From NCBI GenBank assembly GCA_023150555.1, contig JAKLKQ010000006.1, positions 51,726 to 115,725 of the forward strand: a stretch of 64,000 nt of DNA, read 5' to 3'. Shown in pieces: positions 23,030 through 63,812 of the stretch; position 1 is the stretch's first letter; each line of letters begins with the position of its first letter. The notes below the pieces were generated by a model. The model was not told where the DNA came from. It saw nothing but the letters and a program-made list of their open reading frames with translations, and did not search any database. The DNA comes from Planctomycetota bacterium. Its GTDB lineage: Bacteria > Planctomycetota > SZUA-567 > H5-PLA8. The position numbers and the translations under genes are program-made.

Positions 23030-23130
23030 ACTTTGTGCTGTGTAACATTTTGCACGTAGAGAACATGTTTATTGAAAACGAGTTATGAAGTAAATTGGAA
23101 AAATGTTTCACGTGAAACATTATGTCAATA
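23030..23130 (+). repeat. AT-rich conserved non-coding element, copy 1 (candidate sRNA or regulatory repeat)
   Basis: Bipartite: TGTGTAACATTTTGCACGTAGAG, then ~45 nt, then AAAAATGTTTCACGTGAAACAT (a perfect 18-bp palindrome). About 70% identical over ~110 nt to the minus strand of 48395-48530. Confidence 0.5.
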
Positions 23131-43283: not shown

Positions 43284-46200
43284 CTACTTGCCGCTTAACG
43301 CCTTGGCTTTCTTCGCAAGGTCGATGAACTCGGCGCGCTGGCCTTCCGCGTCGGCGCCCTTGCTCTCGCCGGCCAGCTCCAGCACGAAGTCCCAGTTCAA
43401 ATTCTTCGCGTAGACGCTGCCGCGCAGCAGCATGCCGAAGGCGGCGACCGAGGACGCGAAGCGGAAGTCCGGGCTGCTCTGTTCGAGCTTCTTTCCGCCG
43501 TCGCGCACCGGGACGCTCAGTTCCGTGCTCTTGTCTTCCTCGGGCTGCTTGTAGCGCAGCCACACGGTCAGCAGCTCGCCGCTGGTCTTCGCGTCTTCCT
43601 TGACCTTGGCTTCCTCGAGGTACCGCGACGCGCGTTCGGCGGGCGCCTTGGGCGCGGCCAGCTCGGCAAGTTTGACGGTGCGCTTGACCGTCGTCTTGAT
43701 CACGTTCGCGTCGGCGACGGCGCTGACTTCGAACTCGTACTCGCCGTCGGCCGTGGGCAGGAAGTACGCGTTCGGGCGGTCGGCGTCGCGCAGGTCGGCC
43801 TTGGGGCCGCCCGTCTGCTTCCAGATGAAGGTCAGCTTCGCGACTTCTTCGGGCTTGGCGTTCAGCAGCAGCACGTCCAGAGGCACGCGCACGGGCTGCA
43901 CGGCTTCCTCGGTGCCGGCTGGAATCACCTCATACAGCGCGGTGACGGCGTGGCCCGCGCCGATCTCGCCGGCGTCCTTCGTGTCGTCGGCGAAGTCTTC
44001 CTTGCGCATCAGGCGGTTCTCGTAGCCGATCAGGCGGTAACTGTGCGCCGTCGCGGGATTGAATTCGACCTGCACCTTCACGTCCTTGGCGATGGTCACC
44101 AGCGTGCCGGCCAGCTCCTGCCCGAAGACCTTCTTCGCTTCCTGGAACGAGTCGATGTACGCGTAATGGCCGTTGCCCTTGTCGGCGATGGCTTCGAGCT
44201 TGTCGTCCTTATAGTTGCCCATGCCGAAGCCGAGCACGCTCAGGAAGACACCGCTCTTGGCCTGTTTCTCGATCAGCTTCACCAGTTCGTCGTTGCTGGT
44301 GGTGCCGACGTTGAAGTCGCCGTCGGTGCAGAGGATCACGCGGTTGGTGCCGCCGGCAATGTGGTTCTTCGCCGCGATCGCGTAGGCCTTCTGGATTCCG
44401 TCGCCGCCATTGGTGCTGCCGCCGGCGTTCAGCGCGTTGATGCGTTCGAGGATGCGGCGCTTCTGGTCGCAGGGCGTGCTCTCCAGCTCGACCTTGATCG
44501 TGTCGCTGTAGGTCACGATGGCAACGCGGTCGCGGGCGTTGAGGTTGTCGACGAGCAGGTTCAGGCCCTGGCGCACGAGGTCCAGCTTGTTCGCGTCGCC
44601 CATCGAGCCGCTGACGTCGACGAGGAAGACCAGGTTGCTGCTGGGTCGGCTGTTCGGATCGATCTCGCGGCCCTTCAAGGCGATGCGTACCAGGCGGTGC
44701 GCGGCGTTCCACGGGCAGGTGGCGACCTCGATGTGCGTGGCGAAGGGCTCCTTCGCGTCGCTGGGCGGCGGCTCGTACGCATAGCGGAAGTAGTTGATCA
44801 ACTCCTCGTAGCGCACCGCGCCGAGCGGCGGAAGCTGGTTGTCGTTTAGCCAGCGGCGCACGTTCGAGTACGACGCGGTGTCCACGTCGATGGAGAAGGT
44901 GCTGATCGTGCGGGCCTTCTCGAAGGGATTCTCGTTCACCACCGCGTAGGATTCGGTCTGGCGGCCTTCGTCGGGGTGCGGTGCAACGTAGCCCATGCGC
45001 CCGTGGTCGAACTCGCCGTCGACGCCCAGCAGCGCGAGGCCGCCGTCCTTGAACGCGCCGCCGATGCGGTAGTCGTCAAGGGAGCTCATCATATCGCTGA
45101 AGCGCCCGCCGATGCGCGTGAGGCGCCACCTGTCGTTGTTTTGTCCGCGCGCGGGATCCGCCGCGTTGAAGTGCCAGATGACCATCCCGCCGGGCGCTTC
45201 CGGTGCGGGCGTTGCAGGCGAGCGAGCGCCGGACCATTCGCCGCGGGTCCACAGTCCGCGCGTCGAGCCGCGGTCGGCCCAGAGGTTGTCGGTCAAGCGG
45301 TAGCCGGTGGCGACGTAGAAATCGCTAACAGCGGAAATTTCTTCGAGCACGCCAGCCGGATGATACGCGCGGAACTGGTCGGCCCAGTGCTGCTGCGTCG
45401 AACGGTATCCGGTGTCGAAGTTGAATCCTTGAAAATTGAAGTCGTGATGCGGGGTGACGCCGTGGTACTGCGCGTAGGCGTCTTCAATCGAAACCTTTGA
45501 CACCGAAAGGAAGTAATCTGGCGACGGCAGACCGTGAAGCGAATGAGGAACGATCTCTTGGTGCCGCGAACTACCGCGCGTATTACGCCAAGCATCTTCC
45601 TTGCTCATCAGTCCATAGGCGACGGCCCAATTGGCGTTGTTGATATCACGCGCATTGTACCAGCGGTCGCGGATGCCTTCCTCGCCGATGATCACGCTGT
45701 CGGCGATTCGTTTCTGCGTCTCCATATCAAACCTAAGCTGCCCGCGGCGGATGGCGAAGCCGTCGTTGTCTTCCTGCGGGGCATACACATCGTTGAGATT
45801 GATGCCGCTGTCCCGCGAAATGCCTACGGCAACGTTGTCGTTCTGGATGGTGTAGAACCACGTCTGCACCAGCCCGCCCATGGTGAGCTTGCCTTCTTTC
45901 GTCGTCACGCCGGCGTTGGGGCCATACTTGTCCTCGACGACAGTGTCAGCGGAGCCGATGGACGCAACGGCAGGAGCGTTCGTCTTCTGTTCTTTGGCCA
46001 ATTGCTCGCGCAGCTGCCTTAAATCTTCGCGAAGCTGCCTGATCTCTGCGGTCTCCGAGTTTTCGCCACCTTGTATTGTTGGGGCCTTTTTTACCGTCTC
46101 TTTCTTCTGTGCAATCTGGCCTTCAAGCTTCGCGATTTCGGTCTTGATTATCCCCTCGGGACTCGTGATTTCCCAGACCGGAAAGCCCTTTTCGAGGATG

Positions 46201-47618
46201 CCGGGCTTCGGCGCGTCGGTCGTCTTCTTCGTCTCCGCGATCTCGGCCTCGGGCTTCGCGTCGGCGGTGGCCGTCGAGTCTGCAAGCGGCGGGCCCGGTC
46301 GGCGCGAAGCATCGCCGTAGCGAATGCCAAGATCCAGTTGTCTGAAGCTACCGTCGGACCTGGACGCCACTTCGCGCGAAAGACCTTGGATCAATTGGGG
46401 ATGCTCTGCCCAACGGTACCAACCACTGGCAATTGCGGCCTCCGTGCGCTCCGGGGGAGGCGGCGGTCCTGGCGAATACGTCAGCTCAGGCGAGGCCGGA
46501 TGATACGGCGCAACCGGATCCGCTTCTTCCTCCAGCCGCTCCTTACCCAATTCTTCGTTCATCAGGTGCCAGGTGCCTTCGATGGTGTTCGGCGAACTGT
46601 TAATCTGAAGATCAACCGCATCCTCGGTCCTGTATTTCTCCGGCGCCCAAGCGAGCGACGTCTGAAGCCGCTCCTCGCCGATCTTCAGATTCTCGTCCGT
46701 AACTCGGTCGACTTCTTCGAGAAGCTCGGAGATCTTTTGGTTGTGGCGCTGGATTACCGCGGCGCGCGGCGCGACGGCAGTCTCCATGTTCACTTCCGCG
46801 CCCATCCAGCCCGCACCGCTACTGGTCCCGCCTGAACTGGACGTGGCGCTGCCGCTGCCCGGCTGGGCGTCTGCGGCATCCGTTACAGAGGCAATAAAGG
46901 CCCCCAGCTTCTCATGCTGCACACTCAGGTTCTCCTGGACGTCGGCCGACAAATTCGCATCGTTGTGTACGCCGTCGATAGTGATGCCGTTGCCCGCCTT
47001 GAACTTCCCGATCTGAAATTCGAGCGCGGTGTCCAGGTCCAAAGTATTCGACGCGGCCTGGTCTTGCGCCGGCGTCGGCATGTCCACCGCAACGGACGAG
47101 GACGGACTCATCTGTCCGTACGAAGCCACCAGCAGGCCCACCAGCACGGAGATGACCAGCGTCGCGGCGACGGCGCCGAGCGCGAAGTAGCGCCGGAAGG
47201 GTGACGGCGCGGGCCGCGTGGCTTCCCGCGCGCGGCGCCCGCTGCCGGCGGCGGCGTGCGGTTTTTCCGATACGGTGCTTACGGTTTGTGTAGGAGCTTC
47301 GTCCTCGAATGCGGCGGCCATGAGGGCTTCGGCGCTCAGAGCACTGGCTAGCCGGCCGCCTTTCACCGAGGAGGACTCCGTGGCGCCCAGCCCAACGCAG
47401 AGCGTTTCGCCCGTCGCGCGCAGGTCTTCGACGTACTGGCGCAGTTCGGGGTCGCGCGCGATCGCTCCGGCGATGGCCGCGATGCTTTCCTCGTCGAGCG
47501 CCTCGAGTTCGCCCAGCGCGTAGGCGGTGACGCGCGGGTCGTCCCGCCAGCCGCCGTTCGCGGCTTCGGCGCCGTTCTTCCAGGCGATCGTTTCGTTGTT
47601 CTGGTCGTGCTCGCTCAT
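43284..47618 (-). CDS. Giant anti-sigma-factor::YfbK-type vWA fusion protein (1444 aa)
   Basis: N-terminal anti-sigma-like cytoplasmic domain (RVTAYALGELEALDEESIAAIAGAIARDPELRQYVEDL), one TM helix, a large periplasmic region, and a C-terminal vWA (LVFLVDVSGSMGD) + DUF3520-like module as in YfbK. It starts 27 bp after the ECF sigma gene. Confidence 0.75.
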   Translation of the reverse strand: MSEHDQNNETIAWKNGAEAANGGWRDDPRVTAYALGELEALDEESIAAIAGAIARDPELRQYVEDLRATGETLCVGLGATESSSVKGGRLASALSAEALMAAAFEDEAPTQTVSTVSEKPHAAAGSGRRAREATRPAPSPFRRYFALGAVAATLVISVLVGLLVASYGQMSPSSSVAVDMPTPAQDQAASNTLDLDTALEFQIGKFKAGNGITIDGVHNDANLSADVQENLSVQHEKLGAFIASVTDAADAQPGSGSATSSSGGTSSGAGWMGAEVNMETAVAPRAAVIQRHNQKISELLEEVDRVTDENLKIGEERLQTSLAWAPEKYRTEDAVDLQINSSPNTIEGTWHLMNEELGKERLEEEADPVAPYHPASPELTYSPGPPPPPERTEAAIASGWYRWAEHPQLIQGLSREVASRSDGSFRQLDLGIRYGDASRRPGPPLADSTATADAKPEAEIAETKKTTDAPKPGILEKGFPVWEITSPEGIIKTEIAKLEGQIAQKKETVKKAPTIQGGENSETAEIRQLREDLRQLREQLAKEQKTNAPAVASIGSADTVVEDKYGPNAGVTTKEGKLTMGGLVQTWFYTIQNDNVAVGISRDSGINLNDVYAPQEDNDGFAIRRGQLRFDMETQKRIADSVIIGEEGIRDRWYNARDINNANWAVAYGLMSKEDAWRNTRGSSRHQEIVPHSLHGLPSPDYFLSVSKVSIEDAYAQYHGVTPHHDFNFQGFNFDTGYRSTQQHWADQFRAYHPAGVLEEISAVSDFYVATGYRLTDNLWADRGSTRGLWTRGEWSGARSPATPAPEAPGGMVIWHFNAADPARGQNNDRWRLTRIGGRFSDMMSSLDDYRIGGAFKDGGLALLGVDGEFDHGRMGYVAPHPDEGRQTESYAVVNENPFEKARTISTFSIDVDTASYSNVRRWLNDNQLPPLGAVRYEELINYFRYAYEPPPSDAKEPFATHIEVATCPWNAAHRLVRIALKGREIDPNSRPSSNLVFLVDVSGSMGDANKLDLVRQGLNLLVDNLNARDRVAIVTYSDTIKVELESTPCDQKRRILERINALNAGGSTNGGDGIQKAYAIAAKNHIAGGTNRVILCTDGDFNVGTTSNDELVKLIEKQAKSGVFLSVLGFGMGNYKDDKLEAIADKGNGHYAYIDSFQEAKKVFGQELAGTLVTIAKDVKVQVEFNPATAHSYRLIGYENRLMRKEDFADDTKDAGEIGAGHAVTALYEVIPAGTEEAVQPVRVPLDVLLLNAKPEEVAKLTFIWKQTGGPKADLRDADRPNAYFLPTADGEYEFEVSAVADANVIKTTVKRTVKLAELAAPKAPAERASRYLEEAKVKEDAKTSGELLTVWLRYKQPEEDKSTELSVPVRDGGKKLEQSSPDFRFASSVAAFGMLLRGSVYAKNLNWDFVLELAGESKGADAEGQRAEFIDLAKKAKALSGK

Positions 47619-47645
47619 CGTCTTGCTCCGGCTTTCGGCGCCTGC

Positions 47646-48266
47646 TTACGCGCGCGCCGCGTTGCTCTCTCCGTCCTCCGCTACGCGCCGCGCTGCCATG
47701 CGTCCCGAATTATCCGTCGAATTCGCATCGAAATTCGCCGCTTCCTTCGCGCCGTCCGCCTTCATTTCCGTGCGCATCGCCTGCATGGCCTTGTGAAGGA
47801 GGAAGCCGACGTTGGTGACGCTGCGCCCGGTGACGCGCGCGATCTCGCGGTAGCTCAGGCCGTGCTGGAACTTCAGCCGCACCACTTCCTGCTGCAGCGC
47901 AGGCAATTTGACGAGCGCCTCGCGCATGCGCGCGCCGTCTTCGCGGTGCTCGGCGAGGGCGTTCGGTTCGGGCGTGAGGGCTTCCTTCTGCGCGAGCGCC
48001 ACTGAGGCGCTGCGCAGCCGGCGGTCCTTGCGGTGGGCGTCGATGGCGCGGCTGCGGCAGACGGTGTAGAGGCGTTCGCGGAGGTTGCCGTTCAGCGAAC
48101 CGGGGTCCTGGCGGCAGAGCCAGAGGAAGGTCTCCTGCACGGCGTCGCGCGCGCGGTCGGGATCGCCGGTCAGGCGCTGGGCGTAGTGCTCCAGCGGCCC
48201 CCCGAAGCGTTCGAGGGCCTCGCCGACCCAGCGGGTCGCATCGGCCTGGCTATCCACCGCGCTCAT
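47646..48266 (-). CDS. ECF RNA polymerase sigma factor
   Basis: Sigma70 region 2 (ERFGGPLEHYAQRLTGDPDRARDAVQETFLWL) and region 4 (LQQEVVRLKFQHGLSYREIARVTGRSVTNVGFLLHKAM). The track ORF extends to 48320. Confidence 0.8.
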   Translation of the reverse strand: MSAVDSQADATRWVGEALERFGGPLEHYAQRLTGDPDRARDAVQETFLWLCRQDPGSLNGNLRERLYTVCRSRAIDAHRKDRRLRSASVALAQKEALTPEPNALAEHREDGARMREALVKLPALQQEVVRLKFQHGLSYREIARVTGRSVTNVGFLLHKAMQAMRTEMKADGAKEAANFDANSTDNSGRMAARRVAEDGESNAARA

Positions 48267-48394
48267 TTCGATTCGCTCGGGCTCCGCTCCCCTGCGCCCG
48301 CCACCGCTTTCGCCCCCCACTACGGATGAGAGCGACTTTTCTTAGCGCCTCCGGACCGAATTCCGAGAATTCCGGCGTCGCGAAAGGCTTGCCA

Positions 48395-48530
48395 TGGCCT
48401 GTTCCGGAACCCTAATGAGAGTCTAATAGTTCACGTGAAACTTTTTTGCGATTATCTGCATAACGCCTTTACAGAAAAGGACTGCTCTGTGTGCAAAGCG
48501 TTACACTGCACGAAGTAGGCTAGGGAATTG
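48395..48530 (-). repeat. AT-rich conserved non-coding element, copy 2 (homolog of 23030-23130)
   Basis: The minus strand reads CTTCGTGCAGTGTAACGCTTTGCACACAGAG ... AAAAAAGTTTCACGTGAACTATT, collinear with copy 1. It lies between the dciA-like gene and the ECF sigma gene, next to a GTTCCGGAAC palindrome. Confidence 0.5.
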
Positions 48531-48551
48531 TTATCCTTACTCCGGTAACGG

Positions 48552-48878
48552 TTACGCGTCGCCGCTCGCCAGCTTTACGCGGACCTCGCGCACGGCCAAC
48601 CCGGCGGCGCGGAAGGCGTCGAGCAGTTCTTGGCGGCGGTAGCCTTCGAGTTCCTGAAAGAGCGCCGCGCTGTCGGCTTCGACGGTCACGACGCCGGTCT
48701 TGACACTCAGCACGTCGGCGTGCGGCGCGAGTTTCTCGCCGAGGATCTCGGCGAGGACCTTGCGCGCGAGGCGGCGGCCCTGGAGCTGGCGCTTGCCCAG
48801 GCCTTCCTTGCGCACGACGCCCTTAAGGATGTCGCCGAGGCCCTGCGCGGGAGCGGGTTTCTTGCGTTCGCTGGCCAT
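48552..48878 (-). CDS. dciA: DUF721 / DciA-like small protein
   Basis: About 108 aa with GLGDILKG...LAPHADVLSVKTGVVTVEADSAALFQELEGYRRQELLDAF, matching the DUF721 pattern. Same operon as dnaN. The upstream Arg-rich part of the 48552..49307 track ORF is rejected. Confidence 0.55.
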   Translation of the reverse strand: MASERKKPAPAQGLGDILKGVVRKEGLGKRQLQGRRLARKVLAEILGEKLAPHADVLSVKTGVVTVEADSAALFQELEGYRRQELLDAFRAAGLAVREVRVKLASGDA

Positions 48879-48888
48879 GCGCGTGCGC

Positions 48889-50025
48889 CTACCGGACCGA
48901 GAACTCCTGCGTGCTGGACGGCACCACCTGCCATACCTGGATGCTCTCGTCCTGCCCGCCGCTGGCGACGCGCGTGCCGTCGGAGCTGAACGCCAGCGCG
49001 GTGACCCAGCCGATGTGGGGCTCGAGCGTGAAGCGGCAGCCGCCGCTGGCGGTGTCCCACGCCTGGATCTGGCGCAGGCTGCCGGCGAGTACGAACTTGC
49101 CGTCGGGCGTAAAGGCCAGCGCCGTGACGCGCACCTTCGCGCCCTTGAGTTCGAACGCGACGCCCTTCTTCGCGACGCTCCAGAGCTGAAAAATGGGCTG
49201 CTGCCCGCCCACGGCGAGGAAGCGGCCGTCGCCCGAGTACGCCAGCGCCGCGATGCCCGGGCCGCCGTCCTTGAAGTTCGGCGCAGCCTGGCAGAGCACC
49301 TGCCCATCGGCGAGCGTCACGACCGCGAAGGCTTCGGTCGCGTCGCCGATGCCCATGCCGGGGTTGATGGCGTGCAGGGCGGCGGACTTCCCGTCGTGCG
49401 ACGGCAGGATCGCGCTCACGGCGGGCAAAGGCAGCGCGCAGGCGTGCAGGGGTTTGCCCGTGGCGGCGGCGAGCACGCGCAGCTGCTTGGGCACGGCCAG
49501 CACCAGGGCCTGGCCGCCGGGCGAGTAGGCGCCCAGCGTGGCGCCGCTGCAGTCGAAGCCCGGCACCGCAGTCTTGGAGGCTACGTCGAGCAGTTCGGCC
49601 TTGCGCCCCAGCAGGTCGACCAGCAGCAGGCGCTTGCCGTCGGGCGAGAGCGCGCCGCTTTTGCCGGAGAACTCGCCGGCCAATTTGGGTTCGGCGCCGG
49701 GGCTTTTGGGCAGCTCCCAGACCTTCACGTGCCCGCCGCCGGCGCTGAGCAACCGCGGCGAGGCCGCGGCGAACTGCAGGCGCTCGACGCCCTTGCCGTG
49801 CTTGAATACGTAGCCGCCTCCCTTGGGTGCGGCGGGCGCGGCTGCCTTGGGCGCGCCGGACGCCTTGGACGGCTGCGCGGTTTCGAGGGCGGCGTTATCG
49901 GTCTTCAGGCTGGCTTTGGAATCGCTCTTGGCGGGCGCCTTGGGCATTCCGCCGCCGCCGGCCGCGAAGTAGAAGATGCCGCCGATGGCCAGCGCCACCG
50001 CCGCGAGCAAAATGGCCGTGCGCAT
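48889..50025 (-). CDS. WD40-repeat protein with N-terminal membrane anchor
   Basis: TM helix TAILLAAVALAIGGIFYF, an Ala/Pro/Lys-rich linker, then repeated beta-propeller blades (GHVKVWEL, QIQAWDT, SIQVWQV). Confidence 0.7.
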   Translation of the reverse strand: MRTAILLAAVALAIGGIFYFAAGGGGMPKAPAKSDSKASLKTDNAALETAQPSKASGAPKAAAPAAPKGGGYVFKHGKGVERLQFAAASPRLLSAGGGHVKVWELPKSPGAEPKLAGEFSGKSGALSPDGKRLLLVDLLGRKAELLDVASKTAVPGFDCSGATLGAYSPGGQALVLAVPKQLRVLAAATGKPLHACALPLPAVSAILPSHDGKSAALHAINPGMGIGDATEAFAVVTLADGQVLCQAAPNFKDGGPGIAALAYSGDGRFLAVGGQQPIFQLWSVAKKGVAFELKGAKVRVTALAFTPDGKFVLAGSLRQIQAWDTASGGCRFTLEPHIGWVTALAFSSDGTRVASGGQDESIQVWQVVPSSTQEFSVR

Positions 50026-50038
50026 GGCCGCCGCCGCG

Positions 50039-51148
50039 CTAGTCCTTCCCGCTGACGGGCATCAGGACGTAGAGGTAGTCGGTGCCTTCGCGGATCACGC
50101 CGGGGCGCGCGCCGTCCTTCATCTCGATGCGCACGGTCTCGGCGTCGAGGGCCTTCAGACAGTCCTGCACGAACTGCGGGTTGAATCCGATGGTCAGGGC
50201 CTCGCCTTCGTATTCGACCTCGACGGTGACGGCGGCGACGCCCTTGTCGGGGCTGCGCGCCTCGATCAGGCACGTGCCGGGGCTGAAGGTCATGTTGACG
50301 GTGCGGGTGTCGTCGCTGGTTAGGAAGACGGCCTTGCGCAGGGCGTGCTGCATGGCCTCGCGCTTGAAGGTGGCTTCGTGGTCGCTGTCCTTCGGGATGA
50401 CCTGCTGGTACTTGGGGAAGATGCCTTCGACAAGCAGGCTGCTGAGCGTCACGTCGCCGCCTCGCACCAGGAAGTTGCGCCCGCGCACGGCCAGTTCGAC
50501 GTTCTCGCCTTCGGCGATCGGATCGCAGAGCTTGCGTACTTCCTGCATCATCTTGACGGGCACGATCACGCCGTCTTCCAGCGTTCCGCTGCCCTTCAGC
50601 TTGCGCTTGCAGTAGGCCAGGCGGCGGCCGTCGGTAGCGACGACTTCCAGCGTCTTGTCCTTGAACTGCATGTACACGCCGTTGATCGCGAAGCGGCCCT
50701 GTTCGCGCGCGGCGGCAAAGAGCGTGCGGTCAATGATGCGGGCGATCTCGCTGGCGGGCACCGGCAGCGTGGCGCCGTCGCCCAGGTCCGGAACGTCCGG
50801 GAAGTCGCTCGACTCCTGCCCGACGATCTCGAAGCGGTCGCGCCCGACGGTAAGGATGCCCTTGGCGCCCTCGGTCTCCAGCGTGACCACGTCCTCGGTG
50901 CATTCCTTTAGCAGGCCGGCCAGCGTGGTGCAGGGCAGGCACAGCGAGGCGGGATTCTTGACGGACTCGGCCTTGAGCTTGTAGCGCAGGCCCACTTCCA
51001 GGTCCGTGGCCTGGATCTCGAGGTTGCCGTCTTTGTCGGCGACCAGCAGCGCATTCTTGAGATTCTGGCGCACGCCGCGCAGCGGGACGACGGCGGCGGC
51101 CGCCGAAAGAGCAGCGGTGAAGGGTTCGCGCTTGACGACGAGTTTCAT
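50039..51148 (-). CDS. dnaN: DNA polymerase III beta subunit (sliding clamp)
   Basis: About 370 aa. The start MKLVVKREPF and a three-domain beta-clamp pattern (LEIQATDLEVGLRY, FAINGVYMQFKDKTLEVVATDGRRLA, IGFNPQFVQDCLKAL). Confidence 0.85.
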   Translation of the reverse strand: MKLVVKREPFTAALSAAAAVVPLRGVRQNLKNALLVADKDGNLEIQATDLEVGLRYKLKAESVKNPASLCLPCTTLAGLLKECTEDVVTLETEGAKGILTVGRDRFEIVGQESSDFPDVPDLGDGATLPVPASEIARIIDRTLFAAAREQGRFAINGVYMQFKDKTLEVVATDGRRLAYCKRKLKGSGTLEDGVIVPVKMMQEVRKLCDPIAEGENVELAVRGRNFLVRGGDVTLSSLLVEGIFPKYQQVIPKDSDHEATFKREAMQHALRKAVFLTSDDTRTVNMTFSPGTCLIEARSPDKGVAAVTVEVEYEGEALTIGFNPQFVQDCLKALDAETVRIEMKDGARPGVIREGTDYLYVLMPVSGKD

Positions 51149-51909
51149 GGCTTGCTTCTCCTTAACGCCGTCGCTGTTCATACGCAAGCTTGGGCGGTTT
51201 CTTGATCTTGTCCGTGCTGTTCTTGCCGTTCCTTTATAGTAATTAATCTATTCCCTCTTACCTCTTATAGGGCCGCTCCGGATGTGGATAAGTCCGTCGG
51301 CTTCGAGGCAAGCGGTTCATGCCAAAGGAATTGTACCTTTCAACCTCACCCGGTGCACATGTGAAAAGAGCCGGGGCCTTCTTCGCGCCGACTGTTCATC
51401 CCGGAGAACAATCCACACGGCCCTTTTCGCGCGCGCGCGGGAAGATATTGGAGCCGGCGTGAAGCCGGACACCAGCGCTTGCGTTCGCGGGGCTTTCCAC
51501 GGCTGCGAAAGCCCCAACGCCCAAGCGCGCCTGGGCGTGGACGAATCTGGAAAAGAGCAGAGGCTTTCCCGAACTCTTCCACGGCCTGCATCGCGTCCGC
51601 AGCATTCGTTCCGCCGCCGATCCTTCCGCGATTCACGGGTTTTCAACAGCGCCAAATGGCGCGCATGTCGAAGATCCCGGCGTGCTGCGCTCAACGGCAC
51701 GGGCAGTCTATGCCAAACAAGGCTCGGGTCAAAGTCTTTAGGGTAAGAAACGTCAGCTATAAGGGCTAAGGAGCAAACGGTTTTAGGGCTTCCGATGCAC
51801 CATGTTCCGTGCTACTCTAAAGGCTGCACTTCGGCGGGATTACCGAAAAATAGGGGCCTAAAAGCGTTCGCCGCGACGTCTATGGAGAGGCTTTAAGGAC
51901 GAAGCCGCA
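51149..51909. other. Candidate chromosomal replication origin region (oriC) upstream of dnaN
   Basis: A 760-bp non-coding gap with a perfect DnaA box TGTGGATAA (51283-51291), a weaker box cAATCCACA (51409-51417), and an AT-rich stretch CCTTTATAGTAATTAATCTATT (51231-51252). Confidence 0.35.
51283..51291. promoter_or_regulatory. Perfect DnaA box (TTATCCACA, on the complementary strand)
   Basis: An exact 9-mer consensus 30 bp from an AT-rich tract, upstream of dnaN. Confidence 0.45.
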
Positions 51910-53112
51910 TTGCCATACCGCTTTCAGGAGGACGTTTCCTTGGTAGCACGTCGTTTCTGGTTCATTGCCGTTGCGGCGCTGCTGCTGGCCGGAGGCCTGG
52001 GCCGCGCGGCGCGCGCGTCGGAAGTATTCGACGACGAGAAGCTGATCAAGCTGCTCGAGGCGGGCCTGAGTTGGACCGTGATCCAGCGCAAGATCGACGT
52101 ATCGGAAAGCTTCCTGACCGACAGCACCGAGCAGATGATGAGGATCCAGCAGACGGCCAAGAAGGCCGGCGTGCTGACCGAAGGCGACATCAACAACCTG
52201 CAGCTGAAGATCCTCGAGGTCGCCAGCAAGCAGAAGGATCTGGTCAAGAACGGCGTCACCAAGTTCATGAACGCCGCGGTGAACAGCAAGCCCGGCGAAC
52301 AGGAATACGACGCGGCCATGCGCGACGTCCTGCGCGTGGGGCCCGCGTGTGTTCCCGAACTGCGCACGTACCTGCAGAGCGAGAACGAACTGAAGCGCAT
52401 CGCCGCGCTGCACGCCTACGAGAAGATCGCCGACAAGAGCGCCCCCGTCGTGCAGGACGCCTGGATGATGCTCACCGACCGCATCCCCGCCGTGCGTGCC
52501 CAGGCCGCCAAGGCCTTCGCCGCGCTGGCCGACGAGAAGTCCGTCGCCGGCTGCATCGAGGCCCTGCAGGCGCCCAAGACGAACCTGCTCGACGGCTACG
52601 CCCTCTCGCTGGGCTACGTGCGCAGCAAGTCCGCGCTGCCGGTGCTGGTCAAGACGCTCTCGGCCCGCGAGAACGGCAAGGAAGCGCGCTTCGCCGCGGC
52701 CTTCGCGCTGGGCGAGTTGGGCGTGAAGGACGACGGCGCCAAGGCCGCGCTGCTCGAAGCCGTGCTGGACGAATCCGATGATGCGCTGCGCGCCGCCGCC
52801 GCGCAGGCCCTGGGCAAGCTGGGCGTGATGGAAGCGCTGGCGCACATCAAGCGCGCCTACGACCGATTCGGGAAGGGCCGCGAGGCCCTGGTGTACGAAC
52901 TCAGCAACTTCCGCTCGCGCGAGACGATGGAGTTCCTGATCTACACCTGCCTCGACAGCGACAAGAACGACGTGCGCATCAGCACCGTGCACGCGCTGAA
53001 CAAGCTCACCGGCGAAGACTACAAGAACCCCGAGGACTGGAAGATCTGGTGGGAAGCCAACAAGGAGACCCCCGAGTGGGTCGCCACCGGGAAGACGACG
53101 AAGGCGCCGTAG
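51910..53112 (+). CDS. HEAT/PBS-lyase-like repeat protein, secreted or membrane-anchored (hypothetical)
   Basis: N-terminal hydrophobic segment, then repeated AxxAAxALGxLG HEAT-like units. Non-ATG (TTG) start. A possible alternative TTG at 51940 is preceded by an aggagga RBS. Confidence 0.65.
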   Translation: MPYRFQEDVSLVARRFWFIAVAALLLAGGLGRAARASEVFDDEKLIKLLEAGLSWTVIQRKIDVSESFLTDSTEQMMRIQQTAKKAGVLTEGDINNLQLKILEVASKQKDLVKNGVTKFMNAAVNSKPGEQEYDAAMRDVLRVGPACVPELRTYLQSENELKRIAALHAYEKIADKSAPVVQDAWMMLTDRIPAVRAQAAKAFAALADEKSVAGCIEALQAPKTNLLDGYALSLGYVRSKSALPVLVKTLSARENGKEARFAAAFALGELGVKDDGAKAALLEAVLDESDDALRAAAAQALGKLGVMEALAHIKRAYDRFGKGREALVYELSNFRSRETMEFLIYTCLDSDKNDVRISTVHALNKLTGEDYKNPEDWKIWWEANKETPEWVATGKTTKAP

Positions 53113-53533: not shown

Positions 53534-54490
53534 TCAGCTCCACGCCGCGCGCAATCCATCAAACAGCGCCGCGAAGGCGCGCGACTCCTCCGTGCCCGAG
53601 CGGTAGACGACGCCGAACGAGAGCGCCCCGCCTTTCAGCCGCTCGCTGACGTCGAAGGCCACGGTGTTCGGTTCGCGCGGCAGCGCGGCTTCGGTCTCCT
53701 CGGTATCGTTGCGCTTTGCTTTCCCGTCCTTCGCATTCTTCGTCCAATGCAGGTACGGCACGAAGGCCGGCGCCACGCCCTGCCGCACCAGCGCGCGCAT
53801 CGTCTGCGCGAAGGTCACTTCCGCCGCGATCTTCAGGCGCCCACCGGCTTCCTGCAGCAGGCGTTCGGTCAGCACGCGCCCCGGCGAGTCGCCCTCGTAG
53901 GCGATCAGCCCGTGCGGCGCCAGTTCCTGCGGCGTGGGCTTGCGCCCCAGCGCCGCCAGCGGGTGGTTGCGCGGCACCAGCAGCGCAGCGCCGATGCGCC
54001 CCAGCGGCTTCCAGTTCAGGCCCGGCGGGCCTTTCAGCAGCAGCACCAGCCCCGCGTCGGCGTGCCCGCTGCGCACGCGTTCGACGATCTCCGCCGTGGC
54101 GAGTTCCTCGACGCGGACCACCAGGCCCGGGCACTTCTTCTGCGCGTGCCGCAGCGCCGGCGGCAGCGCTTCCATCGCCAGGAACTGGTCCGACGCGAGC
54201 ACCAGCGGCGCGGCGCCGCCGGTCGCGACGCGTTCCAGCACCTTCGGCAGGCCCTCGAAGAACGGCGCGACGAACGCGAACAGCGCGCGGCCTTCGGGCG
54301 TCAGCTCGGTGCGCCGCGGCCCCGCCTGCCGCACCAGCGCCACGCCCAGGGCCTCCTGCAGGCCCTTCACCTGCTGGTAGACCGCCGGCTGCCCGATGGG
54401 GTACGGGAAGGCCTGCGCCGCCTTCGTGTAGCCGCCCTCGCGCGCGACGTGAAAGAAGCCTTCGAGCTGGTGGATGCGGACGTCGGGCAT
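53534..54490 (-). CDS. LysR-family transcriptional regulator
   Basis: N-terminal HTH (IHQLEGFFHVAREGGYTKAAQAF...QVKGLQEALGVALV) and a LysR substrate-binding domain. Confidence 0.8.
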   Translation of the reverse strand: MPDVRIHQLEGFFHVAREGGYTKAAQAFPYPIGQPAVYQQVKGLQEALGVALVRQAGPRRTELTPEGRALFAFVAPFFEGLPKVLERVATGGAAPLVLASDQFLAMEALPPALRHAQKKCPGLVVRVEELATAEIVERVRSGHADAGLVLLLKGPPGLNWKPLGRIGAALLVPRNHPLAALGRKPTPQELAPHGLIAYEGDSPGRVLTERLLQEAGGRLKIAAEVTFAQTMRALVRQGVAPAFVPYLHWTKNAKDGKAKRNDTEETEAALPREPNTVAFDVSERLKGGALSFGVVYRSGTEESRAFAALFDGLRAAWS

Positions 54491-54514
54491 GGCCGGTTCT
54501 CCTATCAACTGCAT

Positions 54515-54532
54515 TGATACTACTTTTAATCA
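54515..54532. promoter_or_regulatory. LysR-type box TGAT-N10-ATCA in the divergent promoter region
   Basis: An inverted-repeat T-N11-A motif 25 bp upstream of the LysR start, inside an AT-rich 127-bp divergent region. Confidence 0.4.
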
Positions 54533-54617
54533 CTATTGTTTTAAAGAATATTTTGCTTTGCGTAAGAATCGCCCCGAACGGGAGCGCAGGCCGCGCCCCG
54601 CCCCGGAGGACCGAGCC

Positions 54618-57600
54618 ATGCTGATCGTGATAGCGCTCTTGATGCTGGTGGTGGTCGGCGCGATCACCGTGATCTGGCTGGGCCTGAAGGGTTTGTCCTG
54701 GCTGCTGGGCGTCGGCGACCAGCCCAAGCCGCGCGGCAGCTACCACTACACCGCCTATCGAAGCGAACCGGCGGGCTCGCCGATCGGTCTGAACGCGCAC
54801 GGGGAAGCCGCGCGGGACCGGGAGGACCCGCGCCCCATCCCCGCCGTTCGGCCCGATCCCGCGCCGCCCGCCGCAGGCATCAAAGCTGTTCCGCTCGACG
54901 AGTACGCGCACTACGGCGTGCTGCGCATTCCGGGCGGCGAAGCGCACCTGGAAGGCGCGCTGCCGCGCAGTCCGGAAAAGATCCGCGCCGCCGCCGAGAA
55001 GCTGCACCGCGACGAGACCGCCCCCGAGACGCCGGGCATTCCCGAGACCCCCGATGGAGCCTCCGCCCAGGAGGCTCCCCCTGTTCCTCCTTCCCTGGCT
55101 GCGTCGATGGCCACGGCAGCGGACAACCGAAAGGAGCCGCACGCGTCCGCATCGGCCGTCCGCCAGGGAAAGGAGGACCCCACCCTTTCGGAGATCCTGC
55201 AGCGCGCGTCGCAGCAGGTGGAAGCCGGCCGCGCGCGGGGAAGCGTCGTTCCGTTGATGCGCAGGCCCTCGCCGCCCGAATCCAAGCGGCCCTGGACCGA
55301 GCGCCTCTTCACGCCGGAGAACATCCGCATCCTGCAGAGCTTGGGCATCGGCATCATCTTCATCTCCGCGGTGGCCTTCGTGCGCGGGCAGATGTGGGAC
55401 GCCGCCGGCCCCTGGGAGCAGCTGGGCATCCTGCTGGGCGGCACGCTCTTCTGCGGCCTCGCGGGCTTCGCGCTGCACCGCTGGACGTCGCTGCGCATCA
55501 CCGGCCTGGGCTTCCTGCTGCTGGGGCATCTCTCGCTGCTGCTCGATACGTACGCTTCCGTGCTGAACACCGCCAGCGGACCGGCGCTGTATCCGTTCGC
55601 GCCGGCCTCGCTGTGGACGGCGATGTTCGCGGCCTTCGCGGGCAGTTCGCTGTGGCACGCGCGCAAGCTTAAGGAACCGCTCTTCGAGGCCTTCGCCGTC
55701 TTCGGCGCGCTCTGTTCGTGGGGCAGCGCCGCGTACTGGTTCGGATTTCCGTGGGCAATGATGCCGGCGGCCATGGTTCCCGCGCTGCTTTTGTGCGCCA
55801 TCGGCGCGCGGGCCCTCGCCAAGGACGGCGAGCCCGTGCGGCGCTGGTCGGTGGCGTGGTGGCTGGGCGCGATCTGGGACCTGGGCGGGCTGCTGATGGC
55901 GCTCGCGCTGCCCGCGGTGGCGGTCTTCGACGCGAACCTGAAACTCGAATCGCACCTCGTCCTGCACGTGGCCGTGCTGCTGGGCTTGGCGCTCGCGCTG
56001 CTGGCGCAGGCCTGGCGCGCCGCGGGCCCGCAGGGCGAAAAGAAGAGTTCGACCAGCCTGTTGGGCCGCGTGGACGCCGCCGCAGTGCTGCTCCTGGCGC
56101 CGCTGCCGCTGGTCTTCTTCGCGCGTGGGGCGGAATGGTACCAGTACCTCACGGCCTTTGCGCTGCCGGCGGCGCTGCTGGGCGGCGTGGCCTTCGCGCT
56201 GCGCCGCGCGCTGGCCGGCACCGGCTGGGCGCGCGAGTGCCTGGTCGAACGCCTGGGCCACTGGGGCATCGGCGTGGCGCTCTTCGCCGTGCCCTTCGCG
56301 CTGCTGGTCGCGGTGGACGGCGCGATGACGCCCGCGCAGGCGGCGCTGCCCGTCGCCGCGGCGCTCTTTGCGTCGCTGGTCGCGGCGGTCTTCGGCAGGC
56401 AGGCCTGGGCCGCGGGCACGGCGACGCTGCTGGCGGCGGCCGTCAGCGGGCTGCTGCTGGCCGAACACCGCGCGGCGGCGGAAGCCTGGCCGGCGGTCTG
56501 GCTGGGCGGCGCGCTGCTGCTTCAGGCGGCGTGGGCGCTGCTGGGTTCGCGCGCGCCGGAATTCGCGGGCGAAGCGCCGACGGTGGGCACGCGGAGCGCC
56601 GACCTGTGGGCGCTGCTGGCCGCCGCGCTGCTGGTAACGCTGAACCCGGCGGTGCCGCTGGGCTTGGCGGCGAAGGCGGCCTCTACGGAACTCCTCTACG
56701 GCTGGCTGGCGCTGCTGGGCTACGCGGCATGCGCGGCGTTGCTGCGGCGCGGCAACGCGCGCTGGAGCGTCGTCTTCTACGCGGGCGTGCCGGCGCTGCT
56801 GGGGCTGACGGGCTGCGCCTACGCATTGTGGAAGTGGCCGGCGGAGAGTTTCCCGCTGGCCTGCTCGGGTCTTGCGCTTGGGGCGTGGTGGCTGGCCGGT
56901 TGGGCGCGGCAATCGGGCATGGGGCTCGATGCCGGCCGGCGCCACGCCCTGAGCATGCCTACCTTTGCGGTCGCGCTGCTGGGCGCGGGCCAAGCGCTGC
57001 ACGGCCTGTACGCCTGGCCCGACGGCCCCAAGCACCTATACGCCGTCGCGACGTGGGCCGGCTACGCGCTGCTGGGCTGGCGCGCGAGCACCGGGACGCG
57101 GCGCGCGCACTGGAACACCGGCACCTTCTTCGGCCTGGTCTGCGGGAGCTTGATCGCGCTGGCCGCGCTGCACGGAATGCGCGCGGCCTCGCTGCCCGCC
57201 GCGCAGATCGGCCCGGTGCTGATGCTGGTCGCGCTGGTCTTGCAGGCGCTGTGCGAGTTGAGCCTGCGCATCGCGCGATCGGAGACGGACGGCGAAGCGG
57301 CGGCGGAAACCGGCGCGCCCTTGTCCGGGGCGCCGCTTTCCGGCCGGGCGATGGGCCTGCGCGTCTCTTCGGCGCTGGCGGGCTTCGGCGCGCTTTCGCT
57401 CGGCTGGATCGCCGCCGCGGGCACGCATCCGTGGTGCTGGGCCTCGACGCTGCTGATGGGCGCGGTGCTTATGGCAACGGAGGCGGTGCTGGGCCGGCGC
57501 GGCAAGGCGAAGATCCACGCGCCGCGCTTCATGCTGCTGGAACTCGCGGGCTTCGCGCTGCTGGCGTGGTCGGCGCGCGAGGCGCTGCTGGCGCTGAACT

Positions 57601-59177
57601 TCCAAATGATTCCTCAATTGTGGCCGCTGGGCGGCGCGCTGCTGCTGCTGGCGGGCATGGCCTGCGAGTCGCTCGCCGGCGCGGTGCTGGGCATCGAGAA
57701 GGCCCGCGAGACGCCCAGCCCCTTCCTGGAGTCGCGCATGATCGCGGCGCTGGGCCTGGGCACGCTCGGTCTGGCGCAGGCGCTGCTGGGGCGGCAGCCC
57801 TTCGGGCTGTTCATCGAACCGACGTGGCGAACGATCTTCGCCTGCGCGGCGCTAGCCGTGTACGGTTCGATGGCGCGCTGGAGCGCCGAAGACGCCTGGA
57901 CGCGCCTGGCGCAGTGGGGCAGCGGGCTCACGGCGTACGTGCTGCTGCCGCTGGGCTACCTGGCCTTCCTGGAAGCGCATTCGACCGGCAGCAGCTACGG
58001 CGGCGCGTGGTTCATGCTGCTGGCGCCGCTGATGCTGGCCACCGCGTACGTGCTGAAGCGCAACGGCCAGGGCGCGCAGGTGGCGCTGGCCGCCGCCGGG
58101 GCGATGTTTGTCAACGCGGGCGCGCTGGTGCTGGCCTTCGCGAAGAACGCCGGAAACCTGCCCGAGGTTCCGATGCTCGTCTTCGCGGGGATCGGCGCAC
58201 AGCTGGTTGCCGCGCGCGCTTACTTTAAGTCGTCGGCCTTCACCTACGCGGCGTGCGCGGCCTGGACGGGCTTCGCGCTCTTCGCCGAACGCCTCGCCTT
58301 CGGACTCGGCGCGTGGAACCCCGCGCCGCCGGTCTGGGAGCCGCTGGCGATGCTGGCCCTGGGCGCCGGGCTGCTGCTGGCCTTCAGCTCGAAGCAGGCG
58401 GCGAAGCGCATCCAGGAGCACCAGCACGTGGCGCTGTACGGCTTCTGGCTCGCGACGGGCATGGCGGTGTGGTCGTTCCTCGTGTGGGGCATGTACGCGC
58501 CGCACGGCGCGCGCGCCTCGGCTTCGGGACTGCTGCGCTACGAGGTCCTGATCGCGTGCCTGGCGTTGTACGGCTGGGTCTGCACGCACGCGCGGCGGGC
58601 GCTGAGCTTCGAACCCGGCGCGTGGCTGGGCCCGGCGCTGACGATGCTCGCCTACATGCTCTATGTCTGGAAGATGCGCCCCGACGCCTGGGAATGGTTC
58701 ATGCTGCCGCCGGCGGTCTTCTGCTTCGGCTGGGCGTACCACCTGGCGAAAGAAAGTGGCCTGGGCGCGCGCGGCGAGGACCGCGAGCCCGTCAACGCGG
58801 TGCTGGGCGCGGCCAGCCTGCTGGCGCTGGCGCCGAGTTTCCTGCAAGCGATGCCGTACGAGCCCGGCCTGAGCAGTTCGACGTACCACTACTTCGCGCT
58901 GGTGGTGCTGGGCTTCGCGCTGGTGGGTGGTGCGATGGTCGCGCGGCGCAAGGTGCCGCTGCTGGCCGGCAGCGGCGCGATACTGCTCGGCACGCTGGTG
59001 AAGGCGGTGCAGTGGATCGCGGACAAGAGTGTGGCCCTGCCGGTGGCGGGCATCGTGATCGGGTTCTTCGTCCTGATGGTGGGCTGCTTCTTCGAGTCGC
59101 GCATGAACGCGGCGCTGAAGCTGGCCGTCGACCGCGCCAAGGCCGAAGCCAAGCTCTTCTGGATTTCGTGGCAGTGA
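54618..59177 (+). CDS. Giant polytopic membrane protein (~1520 aa, >35 predicted TM helices; unknown function)
   Basis: ggagga RBS plus ATG at 54618. Almost entirely hydrophobic Ala/Leu/Gly/Trp-rich helices with short loops. Divergent from the LysR gene. Confidence 0.7.
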   Translation: MLIVIALLMLVVVGAITVIWLGLKGLSWLLGVGDQPKPRGSYHYTAYRSEPAGSPIGLNAHGEAARDREDPRPIPAVRPDPAPPAAGIKAVPLDEYAHYGVLRIPGGEAHLEGALPRSPEKIRAAAEKLHRDETAPETPGIPETPDGASAQEAPPVPPSLAASMATAADNRKEPHASASAVRQGKEDPTLSEILQRASQQVEAGRARGSVVPLMRRPSPPESKRPWTERLFTPENIRILQSLGIGIIFISAVAFVRGQMWDAAGPWEQLGILLGGTLFCGLAGFALHRWTSLRITGLGFLLLGHLSLLLDTYASVLNTASGPALYPFAPASLWTAMFAAFAGSSLWHARKLKEPLFEAFAVFGALCSWGSAAYWFGFPWAMMPAAMVPALLLCAIGARALAKDGEPVRRWSVAWWLGAIWDLGGLLMALALPAVAVFDANLKLESHLVLHVAVLLGLALALLAQAWRAAGPQGEKKSSTSLLGRVDAAAVLLLAPLPLVFFARGAEWYQYLTAFALPAALLGGVAFALRRALAGTGWARECLVERLGHWGIGVALFAVPFALLVAVDGAMTPAQAALPVAAALFASLVAAVFGRQAWAAGTATLLAAAVSGLLLAEHRAAAEAWPAVWLGGALLLQAAWALLGSRAPEFAGEAPTVGTRSADLWALLAAALLVTLNPAVPLGLAAKAASTELLYGWLALLGYAACAALLRRGNARWSVVFYAGVPALLGLTGCAYALWKWPAESFPLACSGLALGAWWLAGWARQSGMGLDAGRRHALSMPTFAVALLGAGQALHGLYAWPDGPKHLYAVATWAGYALLGWRASTGTRRAHWNTGTFFGLVCGSLIALAALHGMRAASLPAAQIGPVLMLVALVLQALCELSLRIARSETDGEAAAETGAPLSGAPLSGRAMGLRVSSALAGFGALSLGWIAAAGTHPWCWASTLLMGAVLMATEAVLGRRGKAKIHAPRFMLLELAGFALLAWSAREALLALNFQMIPQLWPLGGALLLLAGMACESLAGAVLGIEKARETPSPFLESRMIAALGLGTLGLAQALLGRQPFGLFIEPTWRTIFACAALAVYGSMARWSAEDAWTRLAQWGSGLTAYVLLPLGYLAFLEAHSTGSSYGGAWFMLLAPLMLATAYVLKRNGQGAQVALAAAGAMFVNAGALVLAFAKNAGNLPEVPMLVFAGIGAQLVAARAYFKSSAFTYAACAAWTGFALFAERLAFGLGAWNPAPPVWEPLAMLALGAGLLLAFSSKQAAKRIQEHQHVALYGFWLATGMAVWSFLVWGMYAPHGARASASGLLRYEVLIACLALYGWVCTHARRALSFEPGAWLGPALTMLAYMLYVWKMRPDAWEWFMLPPAVFCFGWAYHLAKESGLGARGEDREPVNAVLGAASLLALAPSFLQAMPYEPGLSSSTYHYFALVVLGFALVGGAMVARRKVPLLAGSGAILLGTLVKAVQWIADKSVALPVAGIVIGFFVLMVGCFFESRMNAALKLAVDRAKAEAKLFWISWQ

Positions 59178-63700: not shown

Positions 63701-63812
63701 CTGGGACCTGATCGAGAAGACCGCCGCGGACGCCAAGGGCAAGGACGAGCTGGGCTACCGCGCCGAATTCCTGGACCTGGTTGCGAAGGCCCGCGCGCTG
63801 CCGAAGCGCTGA
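60738..63812 (+). CDS. Membrane-anchored prenyltransferase/terpene-cyclase-like alpha-toroid repeat + YfbK-type vWA/DUF3520 protein (true start probably ~60870-60940)
   Basis: TM helix VAAAFHVLLLALSGVVAMVALPYF, repeat motifs QNQDADGGWD / KQHQLPDGRLAG, and a C-terminal ~480 aa about 65% identical to the C-terminus of the 43284-47618 protein (LVFLVDVSGSMSAD MIDAS). Confidence 0.75.
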   Translation: MNANEGSPGASTPSERPLIKEAAPSAPGALAARGWLRGLVEYLAQTRWWAVAAAFHVLLLALSGVVAMVALPYFGQGETYSTLSLVHPPAPEYDEKPARDVFLKPMPVDANSAPIENPMVTHETIEFGDHSETEVSNSFDTQMLRGAAGMSDMPMGGSGTVAAIGFGGGGGGAYGCSSYAGAGGRRRLAMRGGGALATTERERRAYAVDPRVAAAVRWLAQNQDADGGWDCKAFGGKEHDVAVTGMALLAFLSAGSTEMEGPYRDQVRRAVTYLKQHQLPDGRLAGAGGEGDGYAHAIAGMSLAEAAGQGRVSDTIRAAQQAAFWSAALPDVPDAAWRYRGPGGEGDLSVTGWYVLQLDAARANGLRVSDHALDQARAFLDRVSVKEKGAAATKYLYRPGGKESVRLDAIGAACDLLLGDGRSPAHGLRALPDARTPDLYYWYYGTLAAFQAGGHPWKQWHGALYRTLASTQRRGGAETGSWDPAGDYADHWGRVGQTALSALCLNVYNRNLPAAPDSTAGLAPAPAPEPKPQALENPQDAVDPVANTESYDPIDEATFTKVIGADALSTFDIDVDTASYSNVRRFIQGGDLPPAGAVRIEELVNYFDYDYRAPDNGDAFAVRTEINECPWSPAHRLALVALKGRELERAKPEARPSSNLVFLVDVSGSMSADNKLPLVQQGLRLLVDNLNAKDRVAIVTYAGHAGVALESTPCGDKRGILNAINSLGAGGGTNGAQGILTAYELAKKGFIPGGANRVILCTDGDFNVGVTSRDELLDLIKEQARSNVFLTVLGFGMGNYKDSTLELLADKGNGTYGYIDTFTEAKKVFQNDLDATLVTIAKDVKIQVEFNPAKVAAYRLIGYENRVMAAKDFRDDTKDGGEIGAGHRVTALYELIPFGDPGASAVRGAGPLKYQETAKSSAAAQNGELFTVYLRHKQPEGDSATERDVAVRDAGLGWKDASANLRWASAVAMFGFQLRGSAHKGRTGWDLIEKTAADAKGKDELGYRAEFLDLVAKARALPKR
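60783..60804. promoter_or_regulatory. Second copy (reverse orientation, 20/21) of the CGCCTCCTTTATAAGGAGGCG palindrome
   Basis: CGCCCCCTTATAAAGGAGGCGG lies inside the annotated 5' end of the vWA ORF. This argues that the real start codon is downstream and that the motif is a promoter/operator. Confidence 0.3.

Follow-up and report, generated by a model that had tools for sequence, protein, structure and literature searches.

Origins of replication have, to our knowledge, hardly been described in Planctomycetota, for which few genetic tools exist, and the question raised by the locus analysed here is whether one can be recognised in an uncultured member of the phylum. The stretch of DNA studied, called the window throughout, comprises 64,000 nucleotides (nt) of the Planctomycetota bacterium assembly GCA_023150555.1 (contig JAKLKQ010000006.1, positions 51,726 to 115,725, forward strand). 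It contains a long gap upstream of dnaN, in which an earlier inspection of the letters alone (the sequence-only reading) had seen a candidate chromosomal origin (oriC). We put the probability of this proposal at roughly 0.6: judged from its sequence, the gap would be a dnaN-linked chromosomal oriC, separated from dnaA, of an uncultured Planctomycetota lineage. The oriC-type reading follows from a cluster of several DnaA boxes, a module of fixed geometry, purifying selection on these elements, and the dnaN, dciA and parS context. The gap and the clamp gene beside it are as follows.

51152-51939, unstranded: candidate oriC, a non-coding gap with dnaN on one side (minus) and a divergently oriented HEAT-repeat gene on the other (plus)
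50039-51151, minus: dnaN, DNA polymerase III beta clamp (TIGR00663 at 241.4 bits, the cut-off being 137.65, plus three Pfam beta-clamp domains)

The window has a GC content of ~66% and the gap one of 57%. An analysis of open reading frames (ORFs) and composition across the window found no ORF of coding composition in the gap; together with the TIGR00663 match, this bears out the description of the region as non-coding and upstream of dnaN. The HEAT-repeat gene on the plus strand more likely starts at a TTG at 51940, preceded by AGGAGG, than at 51910, and with this start the gap is ~788 bp long. A search of the gap against Rfam gave zero matches at the gathering threshold or at E values up to 1, and a blastn search against 72,556 plasmids gave zero matches. 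A structured RNA and a plasmid replicon or mobile-element origin were ruled out on these two results.

The DnaA boxes of the gap lie at the positions listed below. Close strains means the window plus three strains whose DnaN is 99% identical, compared column by column; the closest contigs, at this level of identity, are at most 12 kb long.

51283-51291, minus: predicted perfect DnaA box TTATCCACA (the plus strand reads TGTGGATAA), R1-type, nearest the unwinding element
51360-51368, minus: DnaA box CTTTTCACA within the conserved TTTTCACATGTG, invariant in close strains
51409-51417, plus: weak DnaA box CAATCCACA, one variable column among the four close strains
51493-51501, plus: DnaA box CTTTCCACG, a weak TTCCAC site, invariant in close strains
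51537-51554, minus: tandem pair TTTTCCAGA and TTCGTCCAC in like orientation, one variable column in 18
51575-51583, plus: DnaA box TCTTCCACG, a weak TTCCAC site, invariant in close strains
51640-51648, plus: DnaA box TTTTCAACA, the outermost conserved box, invariant in close strains

The perfect box and the 7/9 box at 51409-51417 were recovered exactly where the sequence-only reading had placed them, and the further weak TTCCAC sites that it mentioned are those at 51493-51501 and 51575-51583. The perfect box is the only perfect TTATCCACA in the 64 kb and is invariant in the four close strains. Read on the dnaN-sense strand, the boxes at 51640, 51575, 51493 and 51409 are in reverse orientation, and the tandem pair, the box at 51360 and the perfect box are in forward orientation. 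Boxes were counted with the consensus TT[A/T]TCCACA. The gap contains 1, 3 and 8 boxes with zero, at most one and at most two mismatches, against 0, 0.07 and 0.88 expected per 760 bp from the rest of the window. When the gap was shuffled with its dinucleotides preserved, so that its lower GC content (57%) was taken into account, 0.007, 0.21 and 2.8 boxes were obtained for the same classes (p = 0.0075, 0.0015 and 0.004). The gap was also the top 600-bp interval of the 64 kb for DnaA boxes, with a score of 13 against 5 for the runner-up.

To place these boxes in a wider context, dnaN loci were collected from 17 Planctomycetota relatives by protein look-ups and two collection scans. The best DnaN matches are metagenome-assembled genomes labelled Planctomycetota, with 69-99% identity to the DnaN of the window, and the relatives form two subclades. 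A gap of 417-802 bp precedes dnaN in all relatives with a complete gap, whatever the upstream gene: the HEAT-repeat gene lies across the gap in one subclade and an unrelated gene elsewhere. These gaps contain no called genes, except for one JGI call (L006) and one call of 42 amino acids (L036). No relative of this clade has dnaA within 10 kb of dnaN; outgroup loci of other phyla from the same scans have the classical dnaA-dnaN pair. Locus L038, whose DnaN is 61% identical, has neither the long gap nor the box cluster, indicating that the gap element is limited to the clade in which DnaN identity is 69% or more. In L038 (8783-12831), dnaN lies 48 bp behind an oxidoreductase gene and is followed by nusA-infB.

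An unbiased count of 7-mers in nine independent gaps, relative to their flanks, ranked TTTCCAC first; it is present in all nine sequences, with 17 copies where 0.29 would be expected. Next in rank were TTTTCCA, TCCACAC and TTCCACA. This ranking gives TTTTCCACA as the DnaA box of the clade. A CCCTAA/TTAGGG motif that emerged from the same count was dropped, its position and copy number being inconsistent. The density of boxes with at most one mismatch is 4.8 per kb over the 17 gaps and 0.17 per kb over 272 kb of flanks, a 28-fold difference. Individual boxes could be aligned as well. The relatives have a box at the aligned position of the perfect box (for example TTTTCCACG, TTTTTCACA, TTGTTCACA and TTATCCACG), an aligned block TTTTCACATGTG, TTGTTCACATGTG or TTTTCCACATGGG at the second box, TTCTCCACACCCGTCCACA or TTTTTCCACAGTCCTCCACA at the tandem pair, with box starts ~10 bp apart, and a block TGTGGAAAA or TGTTGAAAA around the outermost box. 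Among the four close strains, 4.5% of the columns in the boxes and the adjoining module are variable, compared with 17.9% in the rest of the gap (Fisher p = 3.5e-5), and positions 51216-51375 are almost invariant. The 64 bp between the perfect and CTTTTCACA boxes (51296-51359, containing GGTTGAAAGGTACAATTCCTTTGGCATGAACCGCTTGCC) are near-invariant in the four strains and partly conserved in the clade; this segment may be a candidate site for an accessory protein.

On the dnaN side of the perfect box, three further elements follow in a fixed order.

51270-51282, minus: GC-rich spacer of 13 nt, TCCGGAGCGGCCC on the minus strand
51247-51269, minus: C-free tract of 83% purine, TATAAGAGGTAAGAGGGAATAGA, at the position where DnaA-trios would lie
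51231-51246, minus: AT-rich tract TTAATTACTATAAAGG (TACTATAAA), candidate unwinding element

The purine tract is invariant in the four close strains. The least stable 40-mer of the gap (51229-51268) includes both the AT-rich and the purine tract and starts 14 nt from the perfect box; its calculated stability is -43.7 kcal/mol, 4.6 standard deviations below the window mean of -64.9 +/- 4.6 kcal/mol. Reading the relatives by eye gave a spacer of 12-14 nt at the proximal box, mostly 13 nt and mostly GC-rich. At the tract position they have a C-free sequence of ~20 nt, of the (ATG)n or GATGATGAAGATGATGATG type or of the GAAGAG type: in many relatives it is a trinucleotide repeat, such as CTGATGATGAAGATGATGATG, and in others, as in the window, a purine run of the GAAGAGG type. 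Beyond the repeat tract, every relative has an AT-rich tract of 12-20 nt, located 70-230 bp upstream of the dnaN start and in one fixed orientation.

This order resembles the basal unwinding system of bacterial origins, in which a DnaA box with at most two mismatches is followed by a spacer of 0-16 bp (mode 13) and a repeat tract (PMC8287927). By this definition the tract has three or more consecutive DnaA-trios (NAN, preferably 3'-GAT-5'), each with adenine in the middle, on the strand that leaves the box by its 5' tail, and an AT-rich region lies beyond it (PMC8287927, PMC8235120). The window has the box and the spacer of this system (a perfect box and 12-13 nt) and an AT-rich region distal to the trio position (51231-51246). 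The strict trio rule was applied to every box in all loci, clade hits being defined as a box 60-260 bp before dnaN. At least five of seven trios read NTN in 7 of 16 clade loci (L007, L008, L009, L010, L020, L022 and L030), compared with 4.9% of 615 background boxes, and L036 and L037 could be added by eye. The relatives have 3'-TAC-5' as the trio unit, which reads ATG on the box strand, in place of 3'-GAT-5'. Degenerate tracts are seen in L021, L024, L025 and the window. An explanation of the ATG repeats as a methionine-rich leader peptide was rejected, as frames and stops are not conserved among the relatives.

The AT-rich tract at 51231-51246 probably also carries the -10 element of a predicted dnaN promoter. 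The 9-mer TTATAGTAA, with at most one mismatch, occurs in five copies in the window against 0.45 expected, its sites including 37021-37043, 51234-51242 and 4573-4581. On the minus strand it reads TACTATAA(A/G), and two genes of that strand have it 80-90 bp upstream of their starts; TACTATAA(A/G) is probably a -10-like promoter element of this organism. A scan with the sigma-70 consensus was set aside, its single weak site in the gap (minus strand, 51732-51705) being far upstream of dnaN. A second long gap of the window, 830 bp at 36942-37771 between a VIT/VWA gene and a zinc-ribbon/peptidase-like gene, contains two copies of the motif TTATAGTA and no DnaA-box cluster.

Genes and sites of replication and segregation lie close to the candidate origin.

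48889-50025, minus: WD40 protein gene, between dnaN and dciA
48552-48875, minus: dciA, helicase operator of 107 amino acids (PF05258, 54.5 bits)
48427-48442, unstranded: degenerate parS TAGTTCACGTGAAACT, between an ECF sigma factor gene and dciA, 2.8 kb from the gap
23104-23119, unstranded: perfect parS TGTTTCACGTGAAACA, 28 kb from the candidate origin

The gap thus has the linkage of an origin, with dnaN adjacent, dciA at 2.3 kb, and parS at 2.8 and 28 kb. The dciA gene usually lies in or beside the dnaA-dnaN-recF-gyrB replication cluster (PMC5109545). In most of the relatives it directly follows dnaN. Matches to parS with at most three mismatches number two in the window, against 0.04 expected, and two of the strains with 99% identical DnaN also have a parS in the spacer between dciA and the sigma factor gene, perfect in L004 (5429-5444) and with one mismatch in L003 (7256-7271). 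Sites of this kind usually cluster in the origin-proximal part of bacterial chromosomes. Neither parA nor parB was found in the window. Pfam scans of all larger window proteins found no dnaA, recF or gyrB in the 64 kb, and a tblastn search with E. coli DnaA against 38 loci found no dnaA in any clade locus; the same search saw dnaA only beside dnaN, in non-planctomycete outgroup loci.

Some features of this neighbourhood are recorded here as observations. The perfect parS lies within the most AT-rich 60 bp of the window, ~0.9 kb upstream of an aconitase gene. Locus L035, from the species of L014, has three palindromic parS variants TGTTCCACGTGGAACA (1609-1624, 1713-1728 and 1875-1890) just upstream of parB and 8 kb from aconitase, so that a linkage of parS with aconitase is common to that species and the window. 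Downstream of dciA on the minus strand, the ECF sigma factor gene is followed by a gene for a large VWA/YfbK protein. This is the first of two large paralogues with vWF_A, VWA and YfbK_C domains (43284-48320 and 60738-63812), and the sigma factor precedes it; L007 has a similar sigma and VWA pair after dnaN and dciA. On the plus strand, 54474-59177 is an ORF of 1567 amino acids with coding-type composition, 73% GC and an atypical positive third-position GC skew. It has zero Pfam or NCBIfam matches, and its start overlaps a divergent LysR gene (53534-54514). Similar giant genes (1529-1893 amino acids) lie beside LysR in L002 and L009.

Strand skew was considered as a further line of evidence. 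The minimum of the cumulative GC skew in the window is broad, at 43-56 kb. Third-position skew is about -0.15 on the coding strand for almost every gene of the window, whichever DNA strand the gene is on, indicating that the raw curve mainly mirrors gene orientation. GC skew within the window was therefore rejected as evidence for or against an origin, being dominated by codon usage and gene strand. After correction, a residual of ~0.035 was left on the dnaN side, in the direction expected of forks leaving the gap (p = 0.18); the other side measures only 12 kb. The third-position GC skew of L005 and L006 has opposite signs on the two sides of the gap, with the switch exactly there (4 genes versus 10), and L025 has a weaker change of sign. 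No skew signal was seen in L009, L010, L022, L024, L036 and L037. The 16-21 kb loci of L001, L007/L014 and L008 have a third-position GC skew of 0.1-0.45 with one sign throughout. Almost no strand skew was found in L035, another locus from the species of L014 (the aconitase is identical and the GC content equal), which was reached via aconitase and lies on a contig different from the 3.26-Mb contig of that species. As L014 has a strong skew, skew in this clade is patchy and gives no simple replichore signal.

The sequence-only reading had also described a switch of gene orientation at the gap, from mostly minus on the left to mostly plus on the right. This holds for the six genes at 43284-51151, which include dciA and form a minus-strand run of ~8 kb. 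It does not hold over the whole 51 kb left of the gap, where the plus strand carries 19 of the 31 called genes, nor in the relatives: pooling their gene tables with the window gave ~73 genes directed away from the gap and 74 towards it. Gene orientation was dropped as an origin signal, the pooled counts being neutral. The candidate origin itself is supported by the box cluster and module conserved in 17 relatives, by their low variation among close strains and by the nearby dciA and parS; the change of skew sign in L005/L006 and, weakly, in L025 also speaks for it.

From the motifs, their enrichment, conservation and geometry, as observed, we infer DnaA binding, unwinding and origin firing along the following lines. 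DnaA-ATP would occupy ~8-9 boxes (consensus TTTTCCACA) across ~390 bp (51283-51674). The strongest box, at 51283-51291, points to dnaN and may play a role like that of R1 in E. coli or box 6/7 in B. subtilis. From this box a DnaA oligomer would cross the 13-nt spacer onto the pyrimidine-rich strand of the 23-nt tract at 51247-51269 and open the adjoining AT-rich 16-mer at 51231-51246, and loading of DnaB may then be helped by DciA, encoded 2.3 kb away. With a -10 element of dnaN in the AT-rich tract, initiation and clamp expression could be coupled.

Several observations count against an origin at this gap. Strong boxes are few, three having at most one mismatch. The AT-rich stretch that had been placed 30 bp from the perfect box is indeed present (CCTTTATAGTAATTAATCTATT, 51231-51252), but the 40-mer at 51229-51268 ranks fourth in the window, three other gaps being equally or more unstable. 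The tract of the window fails the strict trio rule, with no register that gives three consecutive NAN; only the first trio reads 3'-GAT-5', and only with a 12-nt spacer. Judged from its sequence, the element has the layout of a basal unwinding system, but the published rule does not allow it to be classed as one. In L001 (2.76-Mb contig), L007/L014 and L008 there is no change of skew sign at the gap: the strand that carries dnaN in the sense direction is strongly C-rich at its third positions over the full +/-10 kb, on either side. Left of the 8-kb run in the window, head-on genes predominate and orientation gives no support. Finally, with dnaA found neither in the window nor in any clade locus, there may be a denser box cluster at dnaA elsewhere.

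These points bear on the explanations that compete with an origin. The gap might instead be a DnaA-controlled promoter of dnaN, and perhaps of the HEAT-repeat gene too, with the AT-rich tract as its -10 element, boxes that tune clamp expression to the initiation cycle, and the true origin elsewhere, for example by dnaA. The absence of a skew switch in L001, L007/L014 and L008 would agree with this, as would the over-representation of TTATAGTAA 80-90 bp upstream of two minus-strand gene starts, where a promoter element would be expected, and DnaA can regulate promoters through box clusters, as the accessible part of one report describes for oriCII-gidA of P. aeruginosa (PMC13438810). A promoter leaves unexplained, however, the fixed 13-nt spacer and the C-free, trinucleotide-periodic tract in the orientation of an unwinding module, the 8-9 boxes over ~390 bp and the exact skew flip in L005 and L006. 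We consider this explanation unlikely, while taking it seriously, and promoter and origin roles are in any case compatible. A slim chance is given to a relic or secondary box cluster, left by an ancestral dnaA-dnaN origin, silent in some or all members of the clade and kept for DnaA titration or regulation. Such a relic would fit the mixed skew results among the relatives, the small number of strong boxes and the degenerate trio tracts of the window, L021, L024 and L025. Yet the most canonical trio tracts are held by L007 and L008, which have no skew flip, the whole module is near-invariant among close strains where decay would be expected of a relic, and an unwinding module is not needed for titration. 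Chance occurrence of boxes lacking any DnaA function in an AT-richer promoter gap is effectively refuted. A gap of 57% GC in a window of 66% does raise the odds of AT-rich 9-mers, but composition-keeping shuffles gave p = 0.0015-0.0075, and strain conservation, the de novo k-mer enrichment in nine independent relatives and the 28-fold box density over 17 loci point the same way; the probability left to this explanation is negligible.

The three relatives with a strong local skew and no change of sign at the module also raise the doubt, in our view a small one, that the module may not mark the divergence of forks, at least not in all members, and has another role, or that origins have moved. 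If this were true, the module could serve to open a DnaA-driven dnaN promoter, in licensing, or as a secondary origin. In the other case, the origin would have shifted between dnaN-linked positions and others among members of a single family-level lineage, with the module still under selection. The contrast between a conserved module and the local skew of these three relatives is the sole part of the analysis that might surprise specialists. If the gap is oriC, as we favour, it would provide a concrete origin, a clade-specific box TTTTCCACA and an unwinding module for a lineage known here only from metagenome-assembled genomes. It would also set the zero point when growth rates are estimated from metagenomic coverage by the peak-to-trough ratio, aid the orienting and closing of genomes of the clade, and offer a possible replicator for a shuttle vector.

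Among known systems, the box clusters that are not origins (datA, DARS, those of B. subtilis, and the P. aeruginosa oriCII cluster upstream of gidA, as far as the accessible part of its description goes) resemble the window in having boxes in a gap by a regulated gene. We know of no module of box, spacer, periodic tract and AT-rich region in datA and DARS of E. coli or in the B. subtilis clusters, and the P. aeruginosa cluster, within the same partial description, has no unwinding module. A closer likeness is found at the left end of E. coli oriC. An exact match to this end lies between mnmG and mioC in all but one of 5426 complete genomes (5425). It consists of 13-mer R, 13 nt and TGTGGATAA, the same order, strand and spacing as in the window: CTCTTATA-GGGCCGCTCCGGA-TGTGGATAA in the window corresponds to CTCTTATTAG-GATCGCACTGCCC-TGTGGATAA in E. 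coli, with a pyrimidine-rich, easily melted strand in both. Unlike E. coli, the window lacks GATC-rich 13-mer repeats and evident IHF or Fis sites, its neighbours are dnaN and the HEAT-repeat gene instead of mnmG and mioC, and the loader is DciA instead of DnaC.

The basal unwinding systems of B. subtilis and H. pylori share with the candidate origin the order and orientation of elements, the ~13-nt spacer and the distal AT-rich region (PMC8287927, PMC8235120). In many relatives the tract is also periodic in trinucleotides, adenine taking the middle position on the strand that leads 5' from the box. In contrast to those systems, the unit in the relatives is 3'-TAC-5' instead of 3'-GAT-5', the tract of the window is of the GAAGAGG type with a canonical first trio, and a full GC-rich spacer of 13 nt takes the place of a second box and GGCC.

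The closest overall parallel is with cyanobacteria, in which origins are as a rule linked to dnaN and have TTTTCCACA boxes, with dnaA elsewhere; two of them have been confirmed experimentally (PMC4674748, PMC4009838). As in Synechococcus elongatus PCC 7942, Anabaena PCC 7120 and Cyanothece 51142, the gap lies just upstream of dnaN with dnaA elsewhere, and the box consensus TTTTCCACA is accompanied by an AT-rich stretch (PMC4674748, PMC4009838). In contrast to the cyanobacterial origins, the element described here belongs to Planctomycetota, has dciA linked to dnaN and, in one subclade, a HEAT-repeat gene opposite; it is known from sequence alone, and of the relatives with a skew signal only two confirm the site. 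As L038, with 61% DnaN identity, has no such gap, the likeness is one of architecture and not of descent. What is new is thus a candidate for a dnaN-linked, DnaA-dependent origin in Planctomycetota, of a kind already known. If the candidate is correct, Planctomycetota would be a second phylum, besides the cyanobacteria, in which the origin stayed at dnaN after dnaA had left, with DciA encoded at the origin.

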